A DNA stretch of 64,000 nt from an uncultured Alphaproteobacteria bacterium (GTDB lineage: Bacteria; Pseudomonadota; Alphaproteobacteria; Rs-D84): the NCBI GenBank assembly GCA_944389345.1, contig CALXMA010000001.1, positions 1,623 to 65,622 on the forward strand. Reading direction: 5' to 3'. Every line of letters begins with the position of its first letter. Position 1 is the stretch's first letter. A program made the translations under genes and the position numbers. Under the pieces are notes generated by a model. It did no database searches. It worked only from the letters and a program-made list of their open reading frames with translations, and had not been told where the DNA came from. Below are positions 5,110-63,101 of the stretch, piece by piece.

Positions 5110-5231
5110 TGTATTTCCCCTAAGAATAAGCAAATTGCTGTGTGATTATACACAGTTTTTTTATAAACGCAATAATAAGTTGTTGGGTGGGGTGTCTTTT
5201 TTATTTGCTTGTGTTTGTTTTGTGGTGGGTA

Positions 5232-5482
5232 TATAATATTACCTGTCGACGGGTGTTCCGTTGATGGGGTGTGGAAACCTCGGTGATAGCGTCGTGGTAT
5301 TGATTATGGCGCGTGGATGCGCTGTTTTTATTATTGCGATGAAAAGTAAACTCCTGATTTTTGCGTCAGGAGGGTCGCGAAATATCAAATACGCGACACA
5401 ATTCTATCAATTGTTTCCAACCTCCTGACCACCAAGTAAAACTGGTGGTTTTTTCATTACGAAAAAATCAGGAGTACGAACA
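5232..5482 (+). promoter_or_regulatory. structured 5' leader copy 1 (promoter -10, multi-helix RNA, intrinsic terminator 5428-5454, RBS): candidate riboswitch/attenuator
   Basis: Alignable block by block with 42790-43016 and 53175-53379; P1 5246-5264, AGCGTCG 5288-5294, A/B/C elements 5351-5357/5365-5373/5421-5429, CAATTCT-N4-ATTGTT 5399-5415. Confidence 0.7.
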
Positions 5483-6031
5483 ATGAAAACAAAATTTATA
5501 TTACCCATCGGGGTATTTGCGATACTAACCACAATGCCCAACATCGCCCACGCATTGTCCAGCAGTATGACCCATTGCATGGAAACAGGCTTGGGACAGG
5601 CGAATTGCACCTGTGCCGGTGGAACCAACGCTGGTGCAAAGTGCTCAGTAGATTCGCAATGTCCCGGCAGTATATGCTCCAACAGTGGTGGCGGTATAAC
5701 GCCGCCCACGCCCACCATTTGCACCCCAGCAACCTGCAAACCGACCACAACCGGTTGGGGTTCATGCGGTGTTGGCGCCAATTCGTATGTCGAATGCGAA
5801 GCAACCGCCGAATGCAGGGGCAGTTTGTGTGTACGTGGCCAAAATTACCGTTGTGTTGCCGGCGCCTATGGCAACCCCAGCGCATCAAACAAAACCGCCT
5901 GTGCACCATGCCCATCGCCCGGAACATCGGCCGCGGGTTCGACCAGTCAATCTGATTGTTATATCCCGGCCGGAACCACCGGTTCGGACAGTACGGGCAC
6001 GTATAAATATACGGCCAATTGTTATTACTGA
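5483..6031 (+). CDS. secreted Cys-rich protein, family member 1 (ephrin-receptor-like/GCC2_GCC3-type CxxC repeat, conserved C-terminal module)
   Basis: Signal peptide MKTKFILPIGVFAILTTMPNIAHA; 17 Cys in the mature part; C-terminus CAPCPSPGTSAAGSTSQSDCYIPAGTTGSDSTGTYKYTANCYY shared with the 35294 and 43295 genes. Confidence 0.8.
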   Translation: MKTKFILPIGVFAILTTMPNIAHALSSSMTHCMETGLGQANCTCAGGTNAGAKCSVDSQCPGSICSNSGGGITPPTPTICTPATCKPTTTGWGSCGVGANSYVECEATAECRGSLCVRGQNYRCVAGAYGNPSASNKTACAPCPSPGTSAAGSTSQSDCYIPAGTTGSDSTGTYKYTANCYY

Positions 6032-23613: not shown

Positions 23614-23687
23614 TGGTGCGGGCGAAGGGAATCGAACCCTCGTCTTCAGCTTGGGAAGCTGACGTGCTGCCATTATACCACGCCCGC
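23614..23687 (-). tRNA. tRNA-Gly (anticodon CCC), CCA encoded
   Basis: Reverse complement gcgggcg..tcagc-ttCCCaa-gctga..gaggg-ttcgatt-ccctt-cgcccgc-a-cca folds as a cloverleaf. Confidence 0.9.
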
Positions 23688-34973: not shown

Positions 34974-35293
34974 TTGCTTTTCTTGTGGTACTAAATTATA
35001 CTGTTTTGTGAATCCAAATGGATATTGGGTTCGGGGTCGTCAAAAAGCCCTTAATCAAAGCAATGTCGCAAGGCATTGAATACTATCCGCTGTACGAAAA
35101 TACGTGGCGCGGTTTGCGCCGTTTGTGTTTTTGTATACCCCGATTTATAGGTCGGGGGGCCGTCGGTTATACCACAGGATTTTATCCAAAGACCGATGGG
35201 ATCATTTCTTTGATTATGATTTTTTGACCTCCCCGGCCGCCAATATTTTGTTGGCGGTTTTTGCTTTTAACAAAAATGCAAAGGGGGAAAATA
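34974..35293 (+). promoter_or_regulatory. divergent copy of the structured leader (promoter TTGCTT-N17-TATACT, helices, terminator 35237-35262, RBS)
   Basis: Same architecture as copy 1: hairpin ggcgc-ggttt-gcgcc (35106-35120), A ccccga 35138-35143, B tcgggggg 35152-35159, C cctcccc 35228-35234, terminator ccgccaa/ttggcgg plus T-run. Confidence 0.5.
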
Positions 35294-35851
35294 ATGAAAA
35301 TCAAAATCAGCGCACTGGCGTTGTTGGTGATTGCAACAATGCCAGATGTCGCACTGGGCAGGTGTGCTCCAATATATTTGCTACCTGGCGAAACCTGTGT
35401 AAGTGCCGGCGGTGTTATATGCGGGGACGGTTCGTGTTATAAGTGTTGCGATGCGGGTAACGAACCGGGTTTGCCAATTTGTGGTACTGGGGTGTATACT
35501 ACAACCACGGAAAGTTTTTCTGATTACAAAGGCAGTGGCACAAAAACGTATAGAAAATATAAAATTGAATGTAGGTGCCCAGACGGCAGTATATCAAAAT
35601 GTTGGCAAAGCACCACATATACATCATGCAATGCCGGGTATTATAAAAGTGGCGGATCGTGTAATGCGTGTCAAAAAGGAACGTATAAATCGTCCGCCGG
35701 GACCGCGACATCTTGTACGTCGTGCACGTCGCCCGGCACGACCGCGTCAACCGGTTCAACCAGTTCATCGGACTGTTATATTCCGTCGGGGACAACCGGT
35801 TCAGACAGCACAGGCACGTATAAATATACGTCAAATTGTTATTGGAAATAA
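35294..35851 (+). CDS. secreted Cys-rich protein, family member 2
   Basis: Signal peptide MKIKISALALLVIATMPDVALG; C..C..G.Y repeats; C-terminus CTSCTSPGTTASTGSTSSSDCYIPSGTTGSDSTGTYKYTSNCYWK. Confidence 0.8.
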   Translation: MKIKISALALLVIATMPDVALGRCAPIYLLPGETCVSAGGVICGDGSCYKCCDAGNEPGLPICGTGVYTTTTESFSDYKGSGTKTYRKYKIECRCPDGSISKCWQSTTYTSCNAGYYKSGGSCNACQKGTYKSSAGTATSCTSCTSPGTTASTGSTSSSDCYIPSGTTGSDSTGTYKYTSNCYWK

Positions 35852-42789: not shown

Positions 42790-43016
42790 TATAATTTCGT
42801 TGTTGACGGGTGTTCCGTCAATGAGGCCTCAAGAACCTCTGCCTTAGCGTCGGCGTAATCTTTGCGCAGACGATAAACATGCTCCTGGACTTAATGGTTC
42901 AGGAGGAGTTGCAAAATACCCAATATGCGACGCAATTCTAAGGATTGTTCTTGACCTCCTGAACCACCACTATGTTGCGGTGGTTTTTTTTACAAAAAAC
43001 TCAGGAGAAAGAACTT
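42790..43016 (+). promoter_or_regulatory. structured 5' leader copy 2 (TATAAT 42790-42795, helices, terminator 42962-42991, RBS 43001-43007)
   Basis: P1 42803-42821, AGCGTCG 42846-42852, A 42882-42887, B 42896-42906, hairpin 42908-42931, CAATTCT-N4-ATTGTT 42933-42949, C 42955-42965. Confidence 0.7.
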
Positions 43017-43280
43017 ATGAAAAAACTTTGTTTGATTTGCGGAATCGCACTGTATTCCGCCAACGCGGGGGCCGCGTGTACAATCACAGACCATCCCGCA
43101 TCATGTGTCCAACAACCAGAATCTTGCAGTGGCGGATACTGTAAAACTGCGTATACGTATTCGGCACCACACAGAACATGCTCGTGCCCGATGAACTATT
43201 GTTGTTCGTGCGAAGAACAGGCAGAGCCCACATGTCGTTGTCCCACAACGGCCGGGGGTCGACCCTGTCCTGTGTGTTAA
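43017..43280 (+). CDS. small secreted protein, extremely Cys-rich (87 aa)
   Basis: Signal peptide MKKLCLICGIALYSANAGA; 13 Cys in the 68-aa mature part, including CSCPMNYCCSCEE and CRCP..CPVC; RBS TCAGGAG. Confidence 0.65.
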   Translation: MKKLCLICGIALYSANAGAACTITDHPASCVQQPESCSGGYCKTAYTYSAPHRTCSCPMNYCCSCEEQAEPTCRCPTTAGGRPCPVC

Positions 43281-43294
43281 AGGGGGGGGCGAAT

Positions 43295-43684
43295 ATGAAT
43301 ATGCATAAATCTGTGTTGGCCACCATGGTCATGGTGGCGGTGTTTGCCGTGGATTCTGTGTTCGCGGCATGTAATCCCGTCGGTACCAGTTGCAGTTCGT
43401 GCACAACGTATCGGTGTAATTCTGGGTATTATGGAACGGCGCGCAGTGCGTCCAGCGGATGTACAAAATGTCCGTCTAATGCGACGTGTGCCGGTGGCAA
43501 CGGGTCAACATTCGTTTGCGCCAAGGGATACTATAAAAGTGGCAGTTCTTGTGCCGATTGCCCGAATAACGGGACAACGTCCAGCACGGGCGCAACATCG
43601 ATATCCAGGTGCTATATCCCCAGCGGAACCACAGGGTCAGATTCCACAGGTACGTTCAAGTATGTTGGAAATTGTTATTACTGA
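43295..43684 (+). CDS. secreted Cys-rich protein, family member 3
   Basis: AGGGGGGG RBS; signal peptide MNMHKSVLATMVMVAVFAVDSVFA; C-terminus CADCPNNGTTSSTGATSISRCYIPSGTTGSDSTGTFKYVGNCYY. Confidence 0.8.
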   Translation: MNMHKSVLATMVMVAVFAVDSVFAACNPVGTSCSSCTTYRCNSGYYGTARSASSGCTKCPSNATCAGGNGSTFVCAKGYYKSGSSCADCPNNGTTSSTGATSISRCYIPSGTTGSDSTGTFKYVGNCYY

Positions 43685-48978: not shown

Positions 48979-49067
48979 TGGCGGAGCGTATAGGACTCGA
49001 ACCTATGGACCGCTATAACACGGTCACGGATTAGCAATCCGCTGCATTACCACTCTGCCAACGCTCC
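48979..49067 (-). tRNA. tRNA-Ser (anticodon GCU), long variable arm, CCA encoded
   Basis: Reverse complement ggagcgt..cggat-tGCTaat-atccg..long variable arm..atagg-ttcgagt-cctat-acgctcc-g-cca. Confidence 0.9.
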
Positions 49068-53010: not shown

Positions 53011-53100
53011 TGGCGGAGACGAAGGGATTTGAACCCTTGATACGGTTGCCCGTATACGCGATTTCGAGTCGCGCGCATTCAACCACTCTGCCACGTCTCC
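53011..53100 (-). tRNA. tRNA-Ser (anticodon CGA), long variable arm, CCA encoded
   Basis: Reverse complement ggagacg..cgcga-ctCGAaa-tcgcg..variable arm..aaggg-ttcaaat-ccctt-cgtctcc-g-cca. Confidence 0.9.
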
Positions 53101-53174: not shown

Positions 53175-53379
53175 TATAGTGATAACGATATGACGAGTTG
53201 TCATATCGGGGCTTCACAACCCTTTAACCAGCGTCGGTGACGACGATAAATATCCCCAATCTGTAATGGTTGGAGTGCGGTTAATATATTGAATACCCGC
53301 GCAATTCTGGTTAATTGTTGTGAAACTCCAACTACCTAGAATTTGTTGGTGGTTTTGTTTTTAACAAAAAGGGGCTTTT
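53175..53379 (+). promoter_or_regulatory. structured 5' leader copy 3 (TATAGT 53175-53180, helices, weak terminator, RBS) upstream of an outer-membrane protein gene
   Basis: P1 53186-53208 (loop GAGTT), AGCGTCG 53230-53236, B 53268-53276, CAATTCT-N5-ATTGTT 53302-53319, C 53325-53333, hairpin ccaac/gttgg plus T-run. Confidence 0.65.
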
Positions 53380-54048
53380 ATGAACAAAGCAATATTAACT
53401 GGTATATGTGCACTGGGACTGGTTGGAACGGCATGGGCAGAAACCGCGCCAGCATCGGAATTACCAATAAAGGTGTTCGTTGGTGCAAATCTGGCAATGA
53501 CAATGCCAGTATGGTCGAACGATGTAAATGACGTAATGGATCAAATAAGCACAGAATTACCGGGATTAAATTTAGGATTAGGGGGCGAAGCCGGTATAAA
53601 AATTGGTGCGATCGACAAAATATATAATTTTGGATTAAGTGTTGCGTATGATTATATGTTTGATTCTGCCGCAGAGATTGATTATCCATATGATCAATTG
53701 ATATACGAAATAAGCAATGGCTTTTCGGCCATCAGCGTTTTTTTTGATAATTATATAAGATTTGCTGACAACGCCGGCAAACGTAGCGATTTGGTCTTAG
53801 GTATCGGTTATACAAATGGTACAGAACGCATGCAAATGACGCCCGAGCAATTGGGATATGCATATGGATTGAATACAATAGATGTTGATGACACAGGATC
53901 TTTTGTTGGGTTAAAAATTGGATACTTGCAACAAATTACATCAAATCTAGATTTTTCTGCCATGTTACGTGTATTGATTCCGACAGGTAACGGAGGCGAT
54001 GTCGATTCTATATTTAATCTGAGTGCCGGAATTAGATATAATTTCTAA
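53380..54048 (+). CDS. outer-membrane beta-barrel protein (OmpA-like barrel/OmpW-size)
   Basis: Signal peptide MNKAILTGICALGLVGTAWA; alternating amphipathic strands; C-terminal GIRYNF ending in Phe. Confidence 0.65.
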   Translation: MNKAILTGICALGLVGTAWAETAPASELPIKVFVGANLAMTMPVWSNDVNDVMDQISTELPGLNLGLGGEAGIKIGAIDKIYNFGLSVAYDYMFDSAAEIDYPYDQLIYEISNGFSAISVFFDNYIRFADNAGKRSDLVLGIGYTNGTERMQMTPEQLGYAYGLNTIDVDDTGSFVGLKIGYLQQITSNLDFSAMLRVLIPTGNGGDVDSIFNLSAGIRYNF

Positions 54049-58617: not shown

Positions 58618-59087
58618 TAAACAATATTTTTCCTAATATGCGGTCGGCAATCTATATCCATCGCCACTGCCACCGCCAGTATTACAGCCACACAACGCCA
58701 ACACAATTATCAACGTAGTATATCTTTTCTTTTTCTCTCCCCTTTATGGATACCTAATTAAAAAGACCGCCAACAAGAATTGACGGTCGGGGAGTTCGTA
58801 AATCACTATGGCGTTGATTCCGTTGGCCTTTGGATAAAACCTTTTGTATAACCAACAGCTTCCCGACACGCAGTCGAGTGATAATCTAACGATACAATGG
58901 TGTGGAATACTGGATTACGACAACACTGTGCCGGCTATAGCAGAGCTTACGACAGCCCCGAACCCAATTCCCATTGGATTCAACCAGTATTATATCAGGA
59001 ATTTATGTAATTGTAAATAGTGGACATAAATTAAACCACCACCGATGAAACCCAATAAAAATATATACAGCCAGATAAAATCATGTA

Positions 59088-59131: not shown

Positions 59132-59208
59132 GCACCCGTGGCTCAACTGGATAGAGCATCGCCCTCCGAAGGCGGGGACTGCGCGTTCGAATCGCGCCGG
59201 GTGCGCCA
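59132..59208 (+). tRNA. tRNA-Arg (anticodon CCG), CCA encoded
   Basis: gcacccg..gctc/gagc..tcgcc-ctCCGaa-ggcgg..gcgcg-ttcgaat-cgcgc-cgggtgc-g-cca. Confidence 0.9.
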
Positions 59209-62659: not shown

Positions 62660-62739
62660 CTGTTTTTTCTTTGTTTTTGGTCATTATAACTTAAAAACTT
62701 GCATTTGCCACCATAAATATTATAATTGTTTTGTCGCAA

Positions 62740-63050
62740 TTGCGATGATGATTCTGAACCCGTTGCGGAATAGTCGTTATGGACTGGGGGGCGGTACCCC
62801 ACAGCTCCACCAATAAATTCTTCATGGGGCTGACATAGTTTCGACAGGCGAAATAAAGGCAAATCGGTTGAATCCGACGTGGCGTCGTAAAAAGCCAAAT
62901 AAAAACTGAATGGCGATAGAATCGCTGCGAACGACAACGTTCGCCTTGCAATGGCTGCCTAATTGGCGTTTGGATATAATTGGCGATTGTTGATTGTATC
63001 CGTTTAGCCTTATTGCGGGGTCGCTGGGTACCCGGCAACAGAAACCCAGC
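62740..63050 (+). ncRNA. ssrA: tmRNA (ssrA), circularly permuted two-piece type; outer boundaries approximate
   Basis: Acceptor piece ends ...ggac-tgggg-ggcggta-cccca-cagctccACCA at 62812. The coding piece starts GGGGCTGAcatagTTTCGACagg at 62826. Tag ORF 62927-62962 reads ANDNVRLAMAA*. Confidence 0.8.
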
Positions 63051-63101
63051 GTGATGTTTATAACAAACCGCTGTGAATCAAATAAATAAAAAGGTTAAAA
63101 T

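Follow-up and report, generated by a model that had tools for sequence, protein, structure and literature searches.

A candidate switch RNA with two pseudoknots precedes genes for secreted and surface proteins in uncultured Alphaproteobacteria of the Rs-D84 lineage

Transcription attenuators that follow an anti-antiterminator/antiterminator/terminator logic include the PyrR-controlled pyr leaders and ON-type riboswitches such as the pbuE adenine switch. SAM-II and preQ1-II/III are H-type pseudoknot riboswitches that occlude the Shine-Dalgarno (SD) sequence, and the c-di-GMP-I/II riboswitches and T-box leaders each represent one leader class used many times per genome. An RNA element that resembles each of these in part was found in five copies in a stretch of 64,000 nucleotides (nt; 45% G+C; contig CALXMA010000001.1 of assembly GCA_944389345.1) from an uncultured alphaproteobacterium of the lineage Rs-D84; the whole stretch is called the window below, and element positions are given in its coordinates. 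A first-pass annotation, made from the letters of the window, had described copy 1 as a structured cis-regulatory RNA with mutually exclusive helices and a terminator directly before the ribosome-binding site, and all parts of that reading that can be tested in silico were found to hold. Covariation and folding models together indicate that the leader is probably a cis-acting switch controlling both termination and translation.

The likeness among the five copies lay far above chance, as judged by the scores of two covariance models (R1 and R2; Table 1). These scores bore out the kinship noted earlier between copy 1 and the stretches 42790-43016, 53175-53379 and, more loosely, 34997-35293, and the covariance model scan also surfaced the copy on the minus strand (copy 5), which the first-pass annotation did not contain. 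The positions assigned to the copy 1 elements, from the TATAAT box through to the ATG at 5483, were all verified in the sequence. Minimum free energy (MFE) z-scores of the leader copies relative to shuffles ranged from -4.8 to -6.7. Each unit comprises its own sigma-70 promoter, then an RNA of 170-215 nt with an intrinsic terminator at its end, and an alignment of 127 leaders contained a conserved TTG 17 nt before TATAAT.

Beyond these copies, more than 140 distinct relatives were gathered from genomes and metagenomes of gut alphaproteobacteria (Candidatus Enterousia, Rs-D84). Collection used a pattern from the conserved 3' part of the leader (CAATTC N5-6 ATTG N8 CTCC N15-22 GGYGGTTTT), which matched at least 119 stretches in a species-representative genome collection and at least 120 further stretches in metagenomes, human gut included; 134 distinct leaders were obtained by pattern, and 126 and 141 leaders were aligned with the two covariance models. 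Three groups could be distinguished: a long class of about 215 nt (B segment GGUCAGGAGG), a short class of about 170 nt (B segment GGUUGGAG; class 2) and a divergent class 3. Leader copies were less than 78% identical to one another, and every helix was retained via double substitutions. Loci were also retrieved by protein alone. Orthologues of the protein encoded downstream of copy 1 form a graded series in gut metagenome assemblies (98-41% identity), and the same leader, with compensatory changes, lies in the DNA upstream of three of them. Four more loci, reached via distant protein homologues and thus blind to the RNA, all contained the leader, which ends about 25-30 nt before the called start in three of them and overlaps the start in the remaining one (L247); altogether, it was present at seven of seven loci retrieved in this way.

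Pairing was tested against column shuffles and against alignments with the partners slid out of register. In the 126-sequence alignment 97.4% of cells were paired, relative to 80.8% after shuffling and 30-52% after sliding, with compensatory changes in 37 of 44 pairs. The 141-sequence alignment was similar, the two together giving 95-97% paired, 75-81% shuffled and 29-52% slid, and 37-46 compensated pairs. Covariation was therefore strong once more than 120 homologues had been added, and the helices of the first-pass annotation were all supported. The P2a stem, for example, occurs as GGGG/CCYC, GAGG/CCUC, GUGG/CCAC and GGAG/CUCC, class-3 copies have AUCAU/AUGAU in place of the CAAUU/AAUUG of P6, and the terminator was 98.6-99.5% paired across the family. 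One point needed revision: the motif AGCGTCG (5288-5294), described as invariant, is so among the three window copies first compared, and in the family it forms the 5' strand of P3 and varies with compensation. The fold as a whole is aptamer-like, with nine helices, a double pseudoknot and the conserved loops GUGUU and GAAUAUAUUGAAUAA. On the strength of these alignments, the leader is a real, selected RNA structure.

Both pseudoknots (PK1 and PK2) were absent from the first-pass annotation, in which the P2 loop and the tail of CAATTCT..ATTGTT (5399-5415), the two strands of PK1, had been listed separately. In general the P2a loop of 8-9 nt pairs with the 6-7 nt following P6, and together with P2a this makes an H-type pseudoknot. 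PK1 was included in neither covariance model, yet it was 97-98.5% paired with 5-6 of 6 pairs compensated; its variants elsewhere include UCAAGAC/GUCUUGA, UAACGAC/GUCGUUA and UAAGCAC/GUGCUUA, one example pair was counted as GC:42 AU:39 UA:24 CG:13, and the top mutual-information scores after average product correction (APC) belonged to it. PK2, which came from the mutual-information scan and likewise was in no model, had 4 of 4 pairs compensated and 76-92% of cells paired. Copy 4 retains both pseudoknots with wholly different sequences, 8 bp each. The same scan connected the purine that precedes P6 with the first base of the P2a loop (UA:82 CG:29). Three further contacts were considered and rejected. 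An extra R-U closing pair of P6 (columns 268-311, RNAalifold) was discarded since the R covaries instead with that first P2a loop base (column 45). Pairing of the GGGG of P2 with the CCUCC of C, seen in single-sequence MFE structures, was discarded since the P2 stem varies (GUGG, GGAC, GGAU) with its local partner while C stays CCUCC; the genuine long-range contact of P2a is made by its loop, as PK1. A kissing contact between the P1 and P5 loops showed no covariation in the mutual-information scan.

At the 3' side of the leader, three segments (A, B and C) can form two alternative helices. Every B variant seen (UCAGGAG, GUUGGAG, UCGGGAG, GCUGGAG, GCGGGAG, GGGUGGAG, UCGGGGG and others; at least eight variants were compared) was complementary to both A and C, and A:B and B:C consequently exclude each other. 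Cognate helices averaged 8.5 bp (A:B) and 9.8 bp (B:C), as against 5.7 and 6.3 bp, respectively, when partners were swapped between variants. In the alignment built with a model that included A:B and lacked B:C, A:B was paired in 93.5% of cells, with compensation at 7 of 8 pairs, and B:C in 97.9%, with compensation at 5 of 7, so that the mutually exclusive pairing proposed for copy 1 is borne out by covariation of both helices across the family. In its full length (UGGUCAGGAGG/CCUCCUGACCA), B:C takes the first three or four nt of the terminator 5' arm (..GACCA), in agreement with the overlap of 2-4 nt between C and the terminator reported at first. The arrangement is thus that of an attenuator expression platform: part of the terminator stem also belongs to a conserved alternative helix, a competing helix uses the same B nucleotides, the leader has its own promoter upstream, and a GC-rich hairpin with a U-tract stands before the open reading frame (ORF).

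Table 1. Features of the leader RNA, of its copies in the window and of tandem arrays elsewhere. Positions are window coordinates, except for the arrays, which are numbered within their own loci.
Feature	Position	Strand	Remarks
-35-like hexamer	5209-5214	+	TTGTGT; weak in copy 1; family consensus TTG..; copy 1 not listed by a stricter promoter scan
-10 box	5232-5237	+	TATAAT; TAtaaT at constant distance from P1 across the family
P1 hairpin	5245-5265	+	8 bp, loop GUGUU; 8/8 pairs compensated; 97-98% of cells paired
P2a hairpin	5266-5281	+	P2 of the first-pass annotation; stem 5266-5269 with 5278-5281; loop 5272-5277 is the PK1 5' strand
PK1	5272-5277 with 5414-5419	+	UGGAAA with UUUCCA; P2a loop with the strand after P6, just 5' of C
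PK2	5285-5288 with 5405-5408	+	GAUA (P2a/P3 linker) with UAUC (P6 loop)
P3, long form	5290-5341	+	base CGUCG/CGAUG kept as helix; 4/4 base pairs compensated; 97% paired
A	5351-5357	+	CUCCUGA, anti-SD-like (anti-antiterminator); pairs with B
B	5365-5373	+	GUCAGGAGG, SD-like (GGAGG); pairs with A or C
P5 hairpin	5374-5397	+	conserved A/U-rich loop, family consensus GAAUAUAUUGAAUAA; 5/5 pairs compensated; 95-98% paired
P6 hairpin	5399-5413	+	CAAUU/AAUUG; 98% paired; loop forms PK2
C	5421-5429	+	CCUCCUGAC, anti-SD-like; pairs with B (antiterminator) or, when free, with the SD of the gene (predicted)
Intrinsic terminator	5427-5455	+	GACCACCA..UGGUGGUU and U-tract; stem 5427-5450 (terminator scan); 5' base overlaps C
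SD of copy 1 gene	5468-5474	+	UCAGGAG, mimics B; ATG at 5483
Copy 1 gene	5483-6031	+	182-aa Cys-rich protein, signal peptide, C-terminus ..NCYY
Copy 1	5242-5455	+	R1 133 bits, E 3e-27
Copy 2	42799-42990	+	R1 114 bits, E 4e-23; upstream of a small Cys-rich secreted protein gene, 43017-43280
Copy 3	53184-53359	+	short class, B = GGUUGGAG; R1 144 bits, E 1e-29
Copy 3 downstream gene	53380-54048		outer-membrane beta-barrel-like
Copy 4	35007-35264	+	divergent class 3; R1 34 bits, E 1e-5; R2 55 bits, E 3e-13
Copy 4 PK1	35039-35046 with 35221-35228	+	
Copy 4 PK2	35053-35060 with 35208-35215	+	
Copy 4 downstream gene	35294-35851		Cys-rich, Ephrin_rec_like
Copy 5	58760-58985	-	class 3; R1 28 bits; R2 39 bits, E 1e-8; then a short lipoprotein-like reading frame
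Array L120	3936-5066	-	five units, period about 238 nt; ends at helix-turn-helix gene
Array L121	6832-7628		four units
Array L154	8425-9382		five units
Array L112	4276-4693		among the arrays of 2-5 units
Array L087	375-788		among the arrays of 2-5 units

Leaders were tightly linked to genes. A co-oriented ORF followed 127 of the 134 leaders, with the start codon at a median of 30 nt past the terminator (within 19-49 nt in 105 of 118), and 108 of the 127 ORFs open with a signal-peptide-like sequence by a crude rule. The earlier statement that all downstream genes encode Sec-signal proteins thus stands for most of them, the remainder including small helix-turn-helix (HTH) proteins. Many downstream proteins are Cys-rich and end in ..NCYY, and others are outer-membrane beta-barrel or small HTH proteins. 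Very few of 100 downstream proteins matched Pfam, and those that did fell into 14 different families, including Ephrin_rec_like, OMP_b-brl and HTH_3; no shared metabolic theme or clear ligand candidate emerged from this annotation. The downstream proteins were mutually unrelated (about 5% mean column identity), which argues against the leader being a mere passenger of one duplicated gene. Cys-rich secreted proteins of one lineage-specific family, with the shared C-terminus CYIP.GTTGSDSTGTYKYT.NCYY, were encoded at 5483-6031, 35294-35851, 43295-43684 and many other loci; some members match the eukaryote-type Ephrin_rec_like domain (GCC2/GCC3), and almost none has any Pfam annotation.

The leader is also predicted to bear on the SD of the adjacent gene. 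A CAGGAG SD was present in 43 of 90 class-1 genes (48%), relative to 1 of 24 class-2 genes (4%) and 4 of 345 background genes (1%). The SD was predicted to be paired in 91 of 109 full leaders, as against 42 of 109 when the leader was left out; the partner was mostly C, which was the predicted SD partner in 45 of 109 leaders. Masking by A rather than by C was considered and set aside, being dominant in only 5 of 109 leaders, copy 1 included. Ribosome-mediated attenuation through a leader peptide was ruled out by the absence of a conserved leader ORF among 126 leaders: the sole recurrent AUG occurred in 80 of them, with ORF lengths scattered from 3 to more than 57 codons.

A pseudoknot-free partition function gave probabilities of 0.93 for A:B, 0.004 for B:C and 0.98 for the terminator, and the default state would therefore be A:B together with the terminator. 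B:C is conserved by selection in spite of its low value in this model, which means that it must be stabilised by something the model omits, whether a tertiary fold, a ligand or a factor; such a need is the signature of an input-dependent state. We infer that a signal acting on the pseudoknotted domain shifts the balance toward B:C. In the proposed mechanism, each unit would be transcribed from its own sigma-70 promoter, and P1, P2a, P3, P5 and P6 would fold and be locked by PK1 (P2a loop to the strand between P6 and C) and PK2 (P2a/P3 linker to P6 loop). Of the toggle segments, A is a CUCC-type anti-SD-like strand, B a GGAG-type SD-like strand and C a CCUCC-type strand. In the default OFF state A would pair with B and the full terminator would form, and in transcripts that read through, the free C would mask the SD. 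In the ON state B would pair with C, closing a three-way junction with P5 and P6 beside PK1, and the extension of this helix into the ..GACCA at the base of the terminator stem would prevent termination and release the SD. The regulon would be the lineage-specific secreted and surface proteome. As for the trigger, we give roughly equal odds to a small-molecule or ion ligand, which would make the leader a riboswitch, and to a dedicated RNA-binding factor.

A more ambitious proposal, which we put forward tentatively as a possibility with somewhat less than even chances, is that the leaders form a new riboswitch class, in which a double-pseudoknot aptamer would sense a cellular or host-derived signal and, via C, control both whether transcription terminates and whether ribosomes bind for a large part of the surface and secreted proteome of Rs-D84 (Candidatus Enterousia); it would be used many times per genome (five in the window) and also in arrays of autonomous units, by which the response may be buffered or sharpened.

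Such arrays were formed by class-2 units, of which 2-5 complete ones stand head to tail, and every unit has a TTGATA-N17-TATAAT promoter and a terminator of its own (Table 1). The arrays whose downstream gene was examined (L120, L087 and L112) end at a small XRE-type HTH gene (MR.G.EIE.IR..). PK1 differs between the units of one array and is compensated in each, which implies that every unit is functional.

The leader RNA is previously undescribed and lies outside any curated family. Rfam 15 (4227 covariance models) was searched at the gathering score or at a permissive E<=10. At the gathering score, the whole window matched only tmRNA and tRNAs among the Rfam families, in line with the first impression that the leader belonged to no described RNA family, and at E<=10 no credible match was obtained for copies 1, 2 and 4 or for eight loci holding about 16 leaders. 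The sole signal was sRNA-Xcc1 (RF02221; model of 87 nt, gathering score 53), with 28.0 and 27.4 bits in copies 1 and 4 (E 0.002-0.005 in small searches). Membership in that family was rejected, these scores being about half the gathering score in two copies and none of the about 16 other leaders (62 kb) matching at E<=10. No description of the leader was found by full-text literature searches on Enterousia, Rs-D84, sRNA-Xcc1 and related subjects.

Several explanations other than a switch were weighed. The primary product could be a stand-alone small RNA (sRNA) of about 170-215 nt, a trans base-pairing regulator or a sponge or decoy for a protein or ligand, with downstream read-through being secondary. 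Every unit is indeed a complete promoter-RNA-terminator gene, the arrays of 4-5 autonomous units (L120, L121, L154) have compensatory PK1 changes that show each unit to be kept functional, a few units lack a downstream ORF, the terminator forms in 98% of the predicted ensemble, and the CUCC and CCUCC motifs look like the seeds with which known sRNAs pair to SD sequences. These motifs, however, sit in stems and not in loops, and the conserved single-stranded P5 loop had no complementary site beyond chance elsewhere in the 64-kb window, the one stretch searched for trans targets. A plain sRNA would have no need of an internal A/B/C toggle, nor does it account for the strict orientation and spacing relative to the next start codon or for an SD in the adjacent gene that co-varies with the leader class; on balance, we regard this explanation as unlikely. 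Less likely again, and in our view improbable, is a constitutive structured 5' untranslated region without sensing, that is, a fixed attenuator or stability element giving low, noise-filtered expression, or a passive response to temperature or transcription speed. The dominance of the OFF state in silico and the lack of a shared metabolic theme pointing to a ligand would fit, whereas the preservation of two exclusive helices by compensatory evolution is hard to explain without switching, and a double pseudoknot with a conserved loop of 15 nt exceeds the needs of a fixed terminator or an RNA thermometer. That the leader is merely duplicated or mobile DNA, a repeat travelling with paralogous genes and lacking any function at the RNA level, was raised by its several copies per genome and by those downstream genes that are paralogues sharing the ..NCYY C-terminus. 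The first-pass annotation had named this outcome as one that would undo its reading; instead, linkage is tight to co-oriented and otherwise unrelated genes (OMP, HTH and others), the leaders keep a constant strand, promoter and spacing to the start codon, and copies less than 78% identical retain each helix by double substitutions. As far as aligned sequences can tell, this explanation is already contradicted by the covariation counts, and we consider it extremely improbable.

Other points weigh against a cis-acting switch itself. In copy 1, the overlap between B:C and the terminator amounts to only 2 nt, and the MFE structure contains both. Neither A:B nor B:C clashes sterically with PK1 or PK2, and no coupling of a signal to the toggle is therefore visible. 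The folding models have the SD masked in the OFF and the ON state alike, by C or by A. Tandem arrays are atypical for riboswitches and suggest that the terminated RNA may itself act, as an sRNA or sponge. All leader-bearing organisms are uncultured and represented by metagenome-assembled genomes (MAGs). The external set, finally, was mostly gathered by pattern, which accounts in part for the invariance of CAATTC, ATTG, CTCC and GGYGGTTTT; independent of the pattern are the covariation in P1, P2a, PK1, PK2, P3, P5 and the outer positions of A, B and C, the protein-based retrievals and the class-3 copies.

Among the genome matches listed, all records were gut, rumen or faecal alphaproteobacterial MAGs, many of them named Candidatus Enterousia. 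Enterousia belongs to the uncultured order Rs-D84, with genomes mostly below 1 Mb (about 0.75-1 Mb; PMC12306168), and little is known of gene regulation in this reduced-genome lineage. The host of the window was recognisable as an alphaproteobacterium by a two-piece (permuted) alpha-type tmRNA at 62695-63052. If the proposed switch is real, a large and well-defined orphan switch RNA would join the short list of complex bacterial leaders and would stand out as the chief visible regulator of Cys-rich surface and secreted proteins in a host-associated, uncultured lineage of human and livestock guts; an anti-SD strand serving both termination and translation control, and tandem arrays whose units bear promoters, would then be new design principles of RNA switches. 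Hundreds of natural leader variants already map the helices, and identification of the trigger would reveal what these gut symbionts sense.

Some leaders depart from the common layout. The distal part of P3, a GC hairpin with a U-run, is missing from the short class. In copy 1 a hairpin within P3 (5306-5325), followed by GUUUUUAUUAUU (to 5335), was flagged as terminator-like by the scan and has an equivalent in about 60% of the leaders; the GC hairpin of the long P3 could be an extra early attenuator, or merely a structural arm. An extra hairpin between terminator and SD, for example UUGGUGGUGUAUUU..AUACACCACCACCAA, occurs in some leaders (L007 from about 7400, L028 and L058) and repeats the GGUGG/CCACC motif of the terminator. 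Two elements (L020 7381-7558 and L071 1519-1686) keep the 3' half with P5, P6, C and the terminator; their 5' halves are AT-rich and unrelated, pairing between B and C is absent, and degeneration or recombination may explain them. Downstream of copy 5 (to about 58640), the terminator and a GGGGAG SD are followed by a short frame, ..KKKRYTTLIIVLALCGCNTGGGSGDGYRLPTAY*, that resembles a lipoprotein signal peptide and lacks a canonical start codon where the usual spacing would place one; a decayed or mis-started gene is one possibility. The window further contains four tRNA genes, at 23614-23687, 48979-49067, 53011-53100 and 59132-59208 (Gly-CCC, Ser-GCU, Ser-CGA and Arg-CCG, respectively); copy 3 begins about 85 nt past a tRNA-Ser gene on the opposite strand, and copy 5 adjoins that for tRNA-Arg. 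A Cas9-Cas1-Cas2 locus on a related contig (L246 1-2421), some 8 kb away from a gene that bears the leader, has no relation to the leader.

Compared with the described systems, the leader resembles three-element attenuators and terminating riboswitches in layout; it shares with them a structured leader close to the promoter, an alternative helix that uses the 5' base of the terminator, a third segment by which the antiterminator strand is sequestered and a site just upstream of the regulated ORF. It differs from them in a fold and sequence outside Rfam, in its two pseudoknots, in its many copies in genomes of about 0.9 Mb, in the tandem arrays with separate promoters and in toggle segments that are SD and anti-SD mimics, by which C could control both termination and ribosome binding. 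As in SAM-II and preQ1-II/III, a hairpin loop pairs with a downstream strand beside the expression platform, and the output depends in part on access to the SD; in contrast to these, the pseudoknot strand of the leader is not the SD, the RNA is 3-4 times larger, and a second pseudoknot and a terminator are added. With the c-di-GMP-I/II riboswitches and T-box leaders it shares the placement of one leader class before many different genes, and it recalls the c-di-GMP switches further in that surface or secreted proteins are the products of many of these genes, whereas it has no likeness to either in sequence or structure (no Rfam match).

The last comparison concerns sRNA-Xcc1, an integron-borne, trans-acting sRNA of Xanthomonas (PMC2996969). 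None of P1, P2a, P3, A, PK1 and PK2 has a counterpart in it. What the two have in common is a G-rich/C-rich outer helix that closes a two-hairpin junction and is followed by ..ACC.., corresponding to B:C, P5 and P6 of the leader; the B-P5-P6-C domain (5365-5437 and 35150-35246) aligns end to end with sRNA-Xcc1, the three-way-junction layout being common to both. This likeness could reflect convergence or very distant kinship, and sRNA-Xcc1 might itself be part of a larger switch.

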